From a virus (Duplodnaviria; Heunggongvirae; Uroviricota; Caudoviricetes), in the IMG/VR virus record IMGVR_UViG_2537562194_000008: a stretch of 5,362 nucleotides of DNA; one strand, 5' to 3'. A program made the position numbers and the translations under genes. Each line of letters begins with the position of its first letter. The stretch's first letter is position 1. Of this stretch, positions 1,658 to 3,220 are shown piece by piece. Under the pieces are notes generated by a model. The model was given only the letters and a program-made list of their open reading frames with translations, was not told the DNA's origin and did no database searches.

Positions 1658-1767
1658 ACGAGCCCCCAGCGACAGCGAAGGAGTTCTGATATATAAGACT
1701 CAGACATCATTCATTCCCCGGTTCTCCAATATCTGTTTCACTCATCATCCATAACTACCTGTAATTG

Positions 1768-1782
1768 CCCCCCCCTTTTTTT
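1768..1782. repeat. Homopolymeric C8 T7 tract at a compositional boundary
   Basis: ccccccccttttttt lies exactly where moderately GC sequence (1658-1767) meets an extremely AT-rich region (1783-2049) upstream of the OMP gene. Confidence 0.9.
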
Positions 1783-1985
1783 GTAACAGTTCTTATATTG
1801 CTATATAGAATAGCCATTACTAATGCTTTTAAATTTAATAAAATAAAAATTATAAAAAACATAAAACACCACGCAAACACACTTAATAAAAACACCGTTA
1901 CATTAAAAGATAATAAAAACCGCAATAAAAAACGAATAAATCAATTGTCTCACGCAATTATAAAACATCATATTGATTACGCACC

Positions 1986-2013
1986 TTGTATTACAAACTC
2001 ATGTATGTAAAAT
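1986..2013 (+). promoter_or_regulatory. Candidate sigma70 promoter for the lpxR-like gene
   Basis: -35 TTGTAT (1986-1991), 16-bp spacer, -10 TAAAAT (2008-2013); SD AAGGAAG (2033-2039) lies 10 nt before ATG 2050. The long A/T-rich, A-tract-rich upstream region (1783-2030) is typical of H-NS-bound promoters. Confidence 0.25.
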
Positions 2014-2049
2014 ACGCGCACCATTCAAAAAAAAGGAAGACAATAACAT

Positions 2050-3009
2050 ATGAAAAAAAGTGTCATCGCTGGCGTCTTTATTGCTCTGTCATTTACCACG
2101 TGTTCAGCTATCGCGAACAGCCTTGCATTATCATTAGCAAATGATGATGCAGGGAAGTTTCAACCAATACTTAATGATATTTATGGCAATAAACATGAAA
2201 ACAGAGATGATTACTCACAAGGCTTATTTCTGGGATATAGCCACGATATCTCAGACTCGAGCCAATTATCTCTCCATATTGCGCAAGATATTTACTCTCC
2301 ATCAGGCAGTAATAAAAGACACAACACAGCTGTAACTGGAGACAGAGCTTTTAGTGCATACACTCACACTGGTATTGAATGGAACTCCCTTGCGAATGAC
2401 TGGATTCGCTATCGATTAGGTACTGACATAGGTGTTGTTGGCCCCGACGCAGGCGGTCAGAAAGTACAAAATAAAGCTCATGAGATTATTGGGGCAGAAA
2501 AATATCATGCATGGGATGATCAAATAGAGAATCGCTACGGTTATACTGTAAAAGGGATGCTATCCATGACACCAAGTATGGATATTTTAGGTGCTAATGT
2601 TGGATTATACCCTGAAGTTTCTGCTGTTACTGGAAACTTATTTCAATATGTAGCATATGGCGCAACCATTGCCATTGGTAATGATAAAACCTTCAATTCG
2701 GATAATGGCTTTGGTCTGCTGGCTCCCCGTGGTTTAATGCATATGTCCGATACAAGCGGATTCAAATACAAGATTTTTGCAGGTATGGAAAGACGAGATG
2801 TCAATCGCAACTATACTCTCGAAGGAAAAACAATACAGACGAAACAAACAACAGTATCGCTAAACAAAACTGTTGATGAATATCAAGTTGGCGCAACAAT
2901 TGGGTATGCACCTGTAGCCTTCACACTAGCATTTAATAAAGTAACATCAGAATTCAAGACAGGGGATGACTATTCATTTATAAATGGAGCAATCACCTTC
3001 TTTTTTTAA
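2050..3009 (+). CDS. lpxR: Outer-membrane lipid A 3'-O-deacylase, LpxR family
   Basis: 319 aa, the precursor length I recall for Salmonella LpxR. N-terminal signal peptide MKKSVIAGVFIALSFTTCSAIA with an AxA cleavage motif; C-terminus ends in aromatic FFF as in beta-barrel OMPs. With a 22-aa signal peptide, precursor residues N31, D32, S56, K89, H144, E150 fall at mature positions 9, 10, 34, 67, 122, 128, which I recall as the published LpxR catalytic/conserved positions (residue numbering from memory, not checked). Good SD. AT-rich composition distinct from the flanking nin genes. Confidence 0.75.
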   Translation: MKKSVIAGVFIALSFTTCSAIANSLALSLANDDAGKFQPILNDIYGNKHENRDDYSQGLFLGYSHDISDSSQLSLHIAQDIYSPSGSNKRHNTAVTGDRAFSAYTHTGIEWNSLANDWIRYRLGTDIGVVGPDAGGQKVQNKAHEIIGAEKYHAWDDQIENRYGYTVKGMLSMTPSMDILGANVGLYPEVSAVTGNLFQYVAYGATIAIGNDKTFNSDNGFGLLAPRGLMHMSDTSGFKYKIFAGMERRDVNRNYTLEGKTIQTKQTTVSLNKTVDEYQVGATIGYAPVAFTLAFNKVTSEFKTGDDYSFINGAITFFF

Positions 3010-3040
3010 CTGAATTGAATTCAATCAAAATAACATAAGT

Positions 3041-3091
3041 CCAACAAAAACATAAAGTGCGAAATGAATGCCAGCTCCATTTATTTCGCAC
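3041..3091 (-). terminator. Rho-independent terminator between the convergent ninH and lpxR genes, acting mainly on the minus-strand nin transcript
   Basis: Perfect 9-bp inverted repeat GTGCGAAAT (3057-3065) / ATTTCGCAC (3083-3091), extendable by 4 more pairs including a G.U. On the minus strand it is followed by UUUAUGUUUUUGUUGG; on the plus strand the trailing sequence is A-rich. Confidence 0.5.
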
Positions 3092-3220
3092 TATAAAAGA
3101 TTAAAAGTTGCAATAAAATAATAAAATGACTCAGTTACGAAAACCAATAAACTGTGGCCAGTAGTGAGTCGCTCATCATCGGGCTTTTTGGCGAATGAAA
3201 TTTAGCTACGCTTTCGAGTC

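Follow-up and report, generated by a model that had tools for sequence, protein, structure and literature searches.

The window examined here is the whole of a 5,362-nucleotide (nt) stretch of tailed-phage DNA, IMG/VR record IMGVR_UViG_2537562194_000008. It carries lpxR, a gene for an outer-membrane lipid A 3'-O-deacylase, between ninH and the late antiterminator gene Q. Very probably this is the known lpxR moron of Escherichia coli positive for the enterocyte effacement locus (LEE), lying at a joint between two lambdoid modules, of single origin and regulated by the host. The observation holds, yet the gene has been described before, is common, and has had its function worked out in published studies. 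To this we add the junctions at base level, which appear to mark a module joint and not an insertion, with ylcG and a stub of Q recognised; a hypervariable C6-8/T6-8 tract at 1766–1782; the sharing of the block with laboratory phage 434, which offers a simple genetic system for any effect on Q timing or antisense control; and the defective state of the window's prophage, to which phage-level hypotheses are inapplicable.

The window matches Escherichia coli O111 strains 95NR1 and 95JB1 at 100% (NZ_CP021339.1, 856,225–861,586), in a prophage that sits at ybhC, the lambda attachment site. Its phage genes are all on the minus strand and lpxR is opposite, between ninH and the small gene ylcG. An earlier reading made from the sequence alone (the sequence-only reading) had proposed the order ninH, lpxR on the opposite strand, Q, and matches to PF06322, PF09982 and PF06323 bear this order out.

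The lpxR gene and its product

2050–3009, plus strand: lpxR, outer-membrane lipid A 3'-O-deacylase; 319 amino acids (aa); signal peptide ending in AIA, followed by N; PF09982, E 6.8e-40

The gene had been described as lpxR-like, encoding a lipid A deacylase, and the open reading frame (ORF), the PF09982 profile and a structural match all agree with that description. The protein scores 137.4 bits against a cut-off of 26, with residues 10–318 covering positions 2–320 of the 323 in the profile, and its residues 24–319 match PDB 3FID, a 12-stranded barrel, at E 3.6e-153. Reading the sequence shows a hydrophobic leader that ends in AIA before N, and a GGAAG ribosome-binding site stands ahead of the ATG. 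All six active-site residues are present (N31, D32, S56, Q140, H144 and E150); the published list of active-site and Ca2+-site residues is, in mature numbering, N9, D10, T/S34, Q118, H122 and E128 (PMC6863877).

The window's LpxR shows 100% identity both to Sakai ECs_0814, which is annotated as lipid A 3'-O-deacylase, and to gp65 of phage 434. RefSeq holds the same protein as WP_000750155.1 in O157, O145, O121, O111 and enteropathogenic E. coli (EPEC) E2348/69. To judge from these identities, the gene is the known prophage-borne lpxR of enterohaemorrhagic E. coli (EHEC) and EPEC, and its catalytic role in O111 is predicted.

The two edges of the block belong to different Q modules

884–1573, minus strand: gene for a Q82-type late antiterminator; 229 aa, counted from the ATG of the annotation; PF06323 (Phage_antiter_Q), E 1.7e-91
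1588–1710, minus strand: small ORF of the ylcG family; 40 aa; 'YlcG family protein' in RefSeq; annotated in phage 434; aligns with phage 82 orf45
1707–1724, minus strand: remnant of the rusA 3' end (EPGNE and stop) that overlaps the start of ylcG; here the foreign block has its left junction
3135–3224, minus strand: stub of a lambda-type Q; 24 Q codons (3153–3224, MRLESVAKFHSPKSPMMSDSLLAT), then 5 foreign codons and a stop; right junction
3221–3409, minus strand: ninH; PF06322, E 2e-24; last gene of an HK97/HK620-type nin module

On the left, homology to phage 82 (rus-orf45-Q) and to many rusA-ylcG phages covers Q and ylcG and stops at 1719–1724. ylcG is the usual upstream partner of Q82-type Q genes; with the PF06323 match, this synteny places Q in a Q82-type module in which rusA is reduced to its last 5 codons. 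Nucleotide identity of Q to phage 82 Q/orf45 is 88%. The longest Q ORF extends to a GTG at 1657 (257 aa), and the start at 1573 is that given by RefSeq, by the phage 434 annotation and by the Pfam profile, which begins at residue 32 of the 257-aa ORF. The sequence-only reading had set the left edge of the cassette at 1658; it lies at about 1725, and both ylcG (1588–1710) and the Q start at 1573 had been missed.

On the right, HK620, HK97, HK022 and many other phages in which ninH precedes a full lambda-type Q match at 96–98% from beyond 3450 to 3152–3154, and no further. The right-hand boundary at 3152/3153 stands, but the DNA at 3153–3224 is a truncated lambda-type Q and not spacer. RefSeq lists the stub as a pseudogene ('antitermination protein, missing C-terminus'), and the phage 434 record calls it an N-terminal fragment of lambda Q. 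With a start codon that continues to overlap the stop of ninH (ATGA), it forms a 29-codon ORF. The stub is invariant in nearly all copies, yet so is the surrounding DNA, so that its invariance carries no information on function.

From these alignments, foreign DNA at about 1725–3152 appears to replace most of a lambda-type Q and to be joined to a module consisting of the rusA tail, ylcG and a Q82-type Q. Because the block is bounded by fragments of two alternative Q modules, we read it as a module joint rather than a clean insertion. The arrangement is not that of extra DNA between genes that are adjacent in relatives: the block is moron-like in action, not in the manner of its insertion. Alignment with related prophages, which the sequence-only reading had suggested as a check, thus defines the junctions (1719–1724 and 3152–3154) and confirms a foreign block, though not a simple intergenic one.

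The simpler alternative is that a 1.4-kb cassette was dropped between an otherwise contiguous ninH and its Q, and both the order ninH, lpxR, Q and the sharp drop in guanine plus cytosine (GC) content would fit it. However, the 72 nt beside ninH come from the 5' end of another Q, one of lambda type, and the other edge is the rusA 3' tail followed by ylcG. The two flanks are adjacent in no related phage: HK620 has ninH and then a full lambda-type Q, and phage 82 has rusA-orf45-Q82. We also looked for an empty site with an exact 29-mer across the rusA-tail/ylcG edge, and found none among IMG/VR viral contigs, where 48 of the 48 contigs matching the 29-mer carry the cassette. A simple moron insertion is very improbable on this evidence.

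AT-rich DNA upstream of lpxR

1725–2049, no strand assigned: divergent control region between ylcG and lpxR; 28% GC; 11 A-tracts of at least 4 bases in 325 bp

The block at 1725–3152 (1.43 kb) has 35.7% GC, against 45.7% for Q plus ylcG and 48.0% for the nin genes, so that the AT-rich cassette of about 1.4 kb seen in the sequence-only reading is real (35.7% against 46–48% in the flanks) and has the distinct composition of a moron. By part, GC is 28.3% upstream (1725–2049), 39.4% in lpxR and 27.8% downstream, and GC at third codon positions is 30% in lpxR against 44–59% for comparison. These values support a foreign origin of the block, an AT-rich and probably self-contained moron that is convergent with nin and divergent from ylcG-Q. 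The A-tract-rich character that had been noted for the upstream DNA is also evident, with 11 such tracts in its 325 bp at 28.3% GC. This 325-bp region is unique to the present lpxR allele: it has no homology to the DNA upstream of other lpxR alleles, whose matches begin only at 2004 or 2033.

A consensus scan finds a promoter-like site on the plus strand at 1783–1811 (GTAACA-17-TAGAAT) and another on the minus strand at 1996–1967 (TTGTAA-18-TATGAT). A third, proximal candidate at 1986–2013 (TTGTAT-16-TAAAAT) was picked by eye. The lpxR promoter would be either the 1783–1811 site or the proximal one. A C8T7 homopolymer (1766–1782) immediately precedes the best promoter-like −35 of the lpxR strand (1783–1788) and lies about 55–70 nt upstream of the ylcG start. 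It is the sole hypervariable spot in a block that is otherwise 99.7–100% identical, and varies from C6 to C8 and from T6 to T8 among isolates. Since all three C lengths occur in both ninH-type and ninI-type backgrounds, the variation suggests recurrent slippage.

It is tempting to speculate that the AT-rich DNA between lpxR and ylcG is bidirectional, is released from silencing by the regulator Ler, and also drives ylcG-Q. In EPEC, Q goes up 2-fold with Ler (PMC3891560), a weak hint of a Ler-responsive ylcG-Q, and further weak hints are the minus-strand site at 1996–1967 and the tract-length variation in both nin backgrounds. We consider such a bidirectional region quite unlikely. If it existed, it would tie the virulence regulon to Q-dependent read-through of late morons (the NanS-p esterase, a PasD/STnc100-like small RNA (sRNA), holin and lysozyme), would do so even in defective O111-like prophages that lack the right promoter PR, and could be tuned by the C6-8/T6-8 tract upstream of the best promoter-like site.

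Two small ORFs in this region, at 1765–2010 (plus strand, 81 aa) and 1755–1925 (minus strand, 56 aa), were set aside as composition artefacts: both are of low complexity, rich in F, I, L, K and N, begin at TTG and match no family.

A hairpin between lpxR and the Q stub

3056–3092, no strand assigned: hairpin; 15-bp stem, 7-nt loop; 46 nt past the lpxR stop
3112–3127, no strand assigned: tandem AATAAAAT, two copies, in the AT-rich spacer from the hairpin to the Q stub; single copy in phage 434

The sequence-only reading had placed a terminator at 3041–3091. A strong hairpin is indeed present, but its position is 3056–3092 and its U-rich tail is on the minus strand only, where UUUAUGUUUUUGUU follows it. 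It folds at −19.1 kcal/mol on the plus strand (z −7.0) and −16.0 kcal/mol on the minus strand (z −3.5), and a simple terminator scan of the window did not call it. In an 84%-identical lpxR allele linked to cdt the stem is conserved and the loop is different. The hairpin is probably a 3' stem-loop of the lpxR mRNA, which it would end or stabilise. As the U-rich tail belongs to the opposite strand alone, the hairpin also resembles an intrinsic terminator, one that could halt unmodified transcripts coming from nin.

The block is widespread and appears to have arisen once

Of 5,426 complete E. coli genomes, 622 carry the block; identity is at least 99% in 615 of these, and there is almost always a single copy. 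The order stub, lpxR, ylcG, Q also occurs in O157:H7 (strain 2159; Sakai Sp3), O145, O121, O111:H- 11128 and prophage PP2 of EPEC E2348/69. The placement is not unusual, as had been supposed from the sequence alone, but standard in the Sakai Sp3, EPEC PP2, O145, O121 and O111 prophages and in phage 434. Among phage records, only 434 and 434B carry the block (99.2%). Published surveys agree: lpxR is present in 97.3% of 224 EHEC genomes (PMC6863877), and Ogura 2007 (PMC2323221) found it in every O157, O26, O111 and O103 strain tested.

Of the 48 IMG/VR contigs, 42 encode an identical LpxR, 2 an intact one with a single substitution and 2 a disrupted one, and 2 are unscorable. Their nin flank is ninH-type in 22 and ninI (pphA)-type in 19, and some switch to a different Q at ylcG, as does 434B. 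Both junctions are identical in 7 of the 7 annotated genomes examined and in all 48 contigs. Because the junctions are the same throughout while the nin flank and Q differ, comparison of these sequences indicates that the stub-lpxR-ylcG junctions arose once and that the block then spread by homologous recombination. By this route it would have reached different nin backgrounds and been joined, at ylcG, to different Q genes.

Two other lpxR alleles were observed. The cdt-linked allele (85% aa, 84% nt identity), about 1.8 kb from cdtABC, retains the hairpin stem and, ahead of an insertion sequence (IS), 36 nt of the Q stub; a plasmid/contig allele (80% aa) lies amid IS debris near an AraC-type gene. 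Both are of the same family and length as the window's lpxR; they differ from it in their upstream DNA and in their surroundings of IS debris or toxin genes, and are not followed by ylcG-Q. Given the stem and the 36 nt of stub retained in the cdt-linked allele, the joint between lpxR and the Q stub may predate the split of the main and cdt-linked alleles.

Host regulation of lpxR

The sequence-only reading had said that EHEC lpxR responds to virulence regulators, and this is right: dependence on Ler or Pch is reported by Ogawa 2018, which PMC6393859, PMC9263587 and PMC6863877 cite, and by Ler microarrays (PMC3891560). In EHEC, lpxR is transcribed with the LEE genes, Pch and Ler are required, and LpxR lowers phagocytosis (Ogawa 2018, Cell Microbiol 20:e12806, as cited in PMC6393859). 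Deacylation of lipid A at the 3'-O position by O157 LpxR reduces signalling dependent on toll-like receptor 4 (TLR4), again according to citations of Ogawa 2018 (PMC6863877, PMC6393859). The gene is a member of the Ler/LEE modulon (PMC9263587), and in microarrays Ler activates it 21–35-fold in EPEC and 5-fold in EHEC (PMC3891560). Published transcriptomes also show lpxR declining along with LEE in yhaO/yhaJ mutants and in adhered cells. The importance of lpxR for immune evasion by EHEC and EPEC, and its proposal as a vaccine antigen, are likewise published.

In the lysogen, H-NS presumably silences the AT-rich promoter region of lpxR. Ler would relieve this silencing, and Pch and Ler together are published to switch lpxR on with the LEE type III secretion genes. 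The product would be an outer-membrane, Ca2+-dependent lipid A 3'-O-deacylase that dampens host innate immunity. In the O111 prophage, where the early region is gone, lpxR would then be a host-regulated, virulence-associated gene in a phage remnant.

Several points weigh against this account. The promoter-like sites are consensus matches only, and their number is not above chance. A scan for the high-affinity H-NS motif TCGATAAATT with up to 2 mismatches gave 5 matches in the window, where 8.7 are expected, and 0 in the block, and is uninformative. In the literature found, H-NS binding at the lpxR locus is not reported, and Fukui 2016 (PMC4764244) does not mention the locus. The hairpin has no U-tract on the lpxR strand and so does not explain how lpxR transcription terminates. 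A protein search found no donor organism: the nearest non-identical alleles are at 85% and 80%, and the rest are at 73% or less; a search of genome contigs for a donor gave one Citrobacter locus, at 73%. The enzyme activity and the Pch/Ler mechanism are known here second-hand, from papers that cite Ogawa 2018, and the activity and regulation data come from strains other than this O111 strain.

An alternative is that lpxR is a silent or decaying passenger in a dead prophage. In its favour, the host prophage is rearranged and defective, and 2 of the 46 scored IMG/VR copies are disrupted. Against it, the ORF is intact and has its catalytic residues, and the same sequence is found in 42 of the 46 scored copies and across pathotypes; expression is regulated in several published transcriptomes (O157, EPEC); and the gene is retained in all O111 strains tested by Ogura 2007 (PMC2323221). 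The sequence-only reading had named a silent or disrupted gene as one outcome that would refute it, and the intact ORF together with regulated expression in published transcriptomes is the opposite result. We find a silent passenger extremely improbable, and continue to read lpxR as a host-regulated moron.

Consequences for intact phages

The claim that read-through from PR to Q must cross the block fares differently in different prophages. In the intact relatives (phage 434, EPEC PP2 and the O121 prophage) cI-cro-O-P-nin lie upstream of the block, and the claim stands; in such phages as 434, N-modified transcription from PR would read antisense through the block to reach Q. The window's own prophage has no PR transcript, and because PR and N are missing there, the idea of altered induction kinetics is inapplicable to it.

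A further proposal is that the block acts as a regulatory spacer, in which the terminator-like hairpin and 1.4 kb of antisense lpxR delay or gate Q, and in which, conversely, lytic transcription would turn lpxR off through antisense or collision effects. Phage 434, EPEC PP2 and the O121 prophage have the required geometry, and of the two strands only nin-to-Q gives the hairpin a U-rich tail. The EPEC gene that converges on lpxR goes up 3–4-fold with Ler (PMC3891560), on an array that may not be strand-specific; this rise suggests transcription overlap across the hairpin and fits leaky termination on the lpxR strand. However, the window's own prophage lacks PR, N, cI, O and P. Moreover, N-modified polymerase ignores intrinsic terminators, and the extra 1.4 kb costs only some 30 s of transcription. 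Lytic growth of phage 434, which is plaque-forming (PMC9119081), proceeds with the block in place, so the block does not prevent expression of Q and the late genes. A regulatory spacer is therefore unlikely, though the block may have a modest timing or antisense effect where the phage is intact.

Relation to known systems

The closest counterpart is lpxR of Sakai Sp3 and CP-933K (ECs_0814; Z0955 in EDL933), which has the same protein (100%), Q stub, hairpin, AT-rich upstream DNA, ylcG and Q82-type Q, at the same chromosomal site (ybhC in Sp3). The nin module of Sp3 is ninG/pphA (ninI)-type, whereas that of the window is rusA/ninH-type, and Sp3 lacks the inversion of nin-Q-lysis found in the O111 prophage. 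The homopolymer is C7T7 in Sp3, C6T7 in phage 434 and C8T7 in the window.

Gene 65 of phage 434 (OL657226; Feiss et al. 2022, PMC9119081) lies in a block that is 99.2% identical at the nucleotide level, with the same stub and ylcG junctions. Unlike the window's prophage, phage 434 is viable, with N, cI, PR, O and P upstream; it also has a single copy of AATAAAAT and a ninI-type nin region. Our literature search found no paper linking phage 434 and LpxR.

LpxR of the window's type has a published identity of about 74% to Salmonella LpxR. It shares N9, D10, Q118, H122 and E128 with the Salmonella Typhimurium enzyme (3FID; Reynolds 2006, Rutten 2009), and T34 is replaced by S. Salmonella lpxR is chromosomal and is reported to be linked to HilD (PMC5122947), whereas lpxR of the window is phage-borne and Ler-linked.

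Classical lambdoid morons, such as bor and lom of lambda under the Juhala/Hendrix definition, are likewise extra, compositionally distinct DNA; they have expression signals of their own, are expressed from a repressed prophage and benefit the host, features that the lpxR moron may share. Unlike them, lpxR is antisense inside the early-right operon (nin-Q) and bounded by fragments of two alternative modules, where classical morons have two intact genes as neighbours.

The O111 prophage and neighbouring features

3406–3768, minus strand: rusA of the nin module
3765–4055, minus strand: ybcO/DUF1364
4791–4967, minus strand: ninE; ninX, ninF and a small ORF lie between ninE and ybcO

The O111 prophage (13322–24922 of the surrounding locus, of which the window is 18001–23362) is defective. 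Its order is int, lysozyme, holin, esterase, Q, ylcG, lpxR (opposite strand), ninH to ninE, IS1203 and a truncated portal gene; with respect to int and the structural genes, the nin-Q-lysis block has been inverted. N, cI, cro, O, P and PR are absent from this prophage, the immunity, N and replication regions having been lost. Q, holin and lysozyme are intact all the same. The start of IS1203, of the IS3 family, occupies 5074–5362 of the window (plus strand), adjoins ninE and delimits the rearranged segment on one side; beside the IS, strain 11128 retains an extra 1.3 kb with ninB and 3 small genes.

At the end of Q, a promoter-like TTGCAA-17-TATACT (900–872, minus strand) overlaps the gene and is followed by a clean intrinsic terminator at 838–817. 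This unit (808–900) is presumably the PR'/qut/tR' of the Q82-type antiterminator. Scans of the window for tRNAs and against Rfam (E up to 1) were empty inside the lpxR block and gave only a weak STnc240-like match (28 bits, E 0.41) at the PR'/terminator downstream of Q.

About 300 nt left of where the window begins, and upstream of the gene for sialate esterase, is an STnc100-like RNA (17497–17701 of the locus, minus strand); its match of 41.4 bits is under the gathering score of 47 (E 1e-6). A 2026 preprint puts the sRNA PasD at this spot, which is outside the window, and reports its linkage to LpxR and Q in >98% of cases. HnrS, considered as a resident sRNA, was rejected, as it is found in Sp9, Sp10 and Sp12 and not in Sp3 (PMC13502914).

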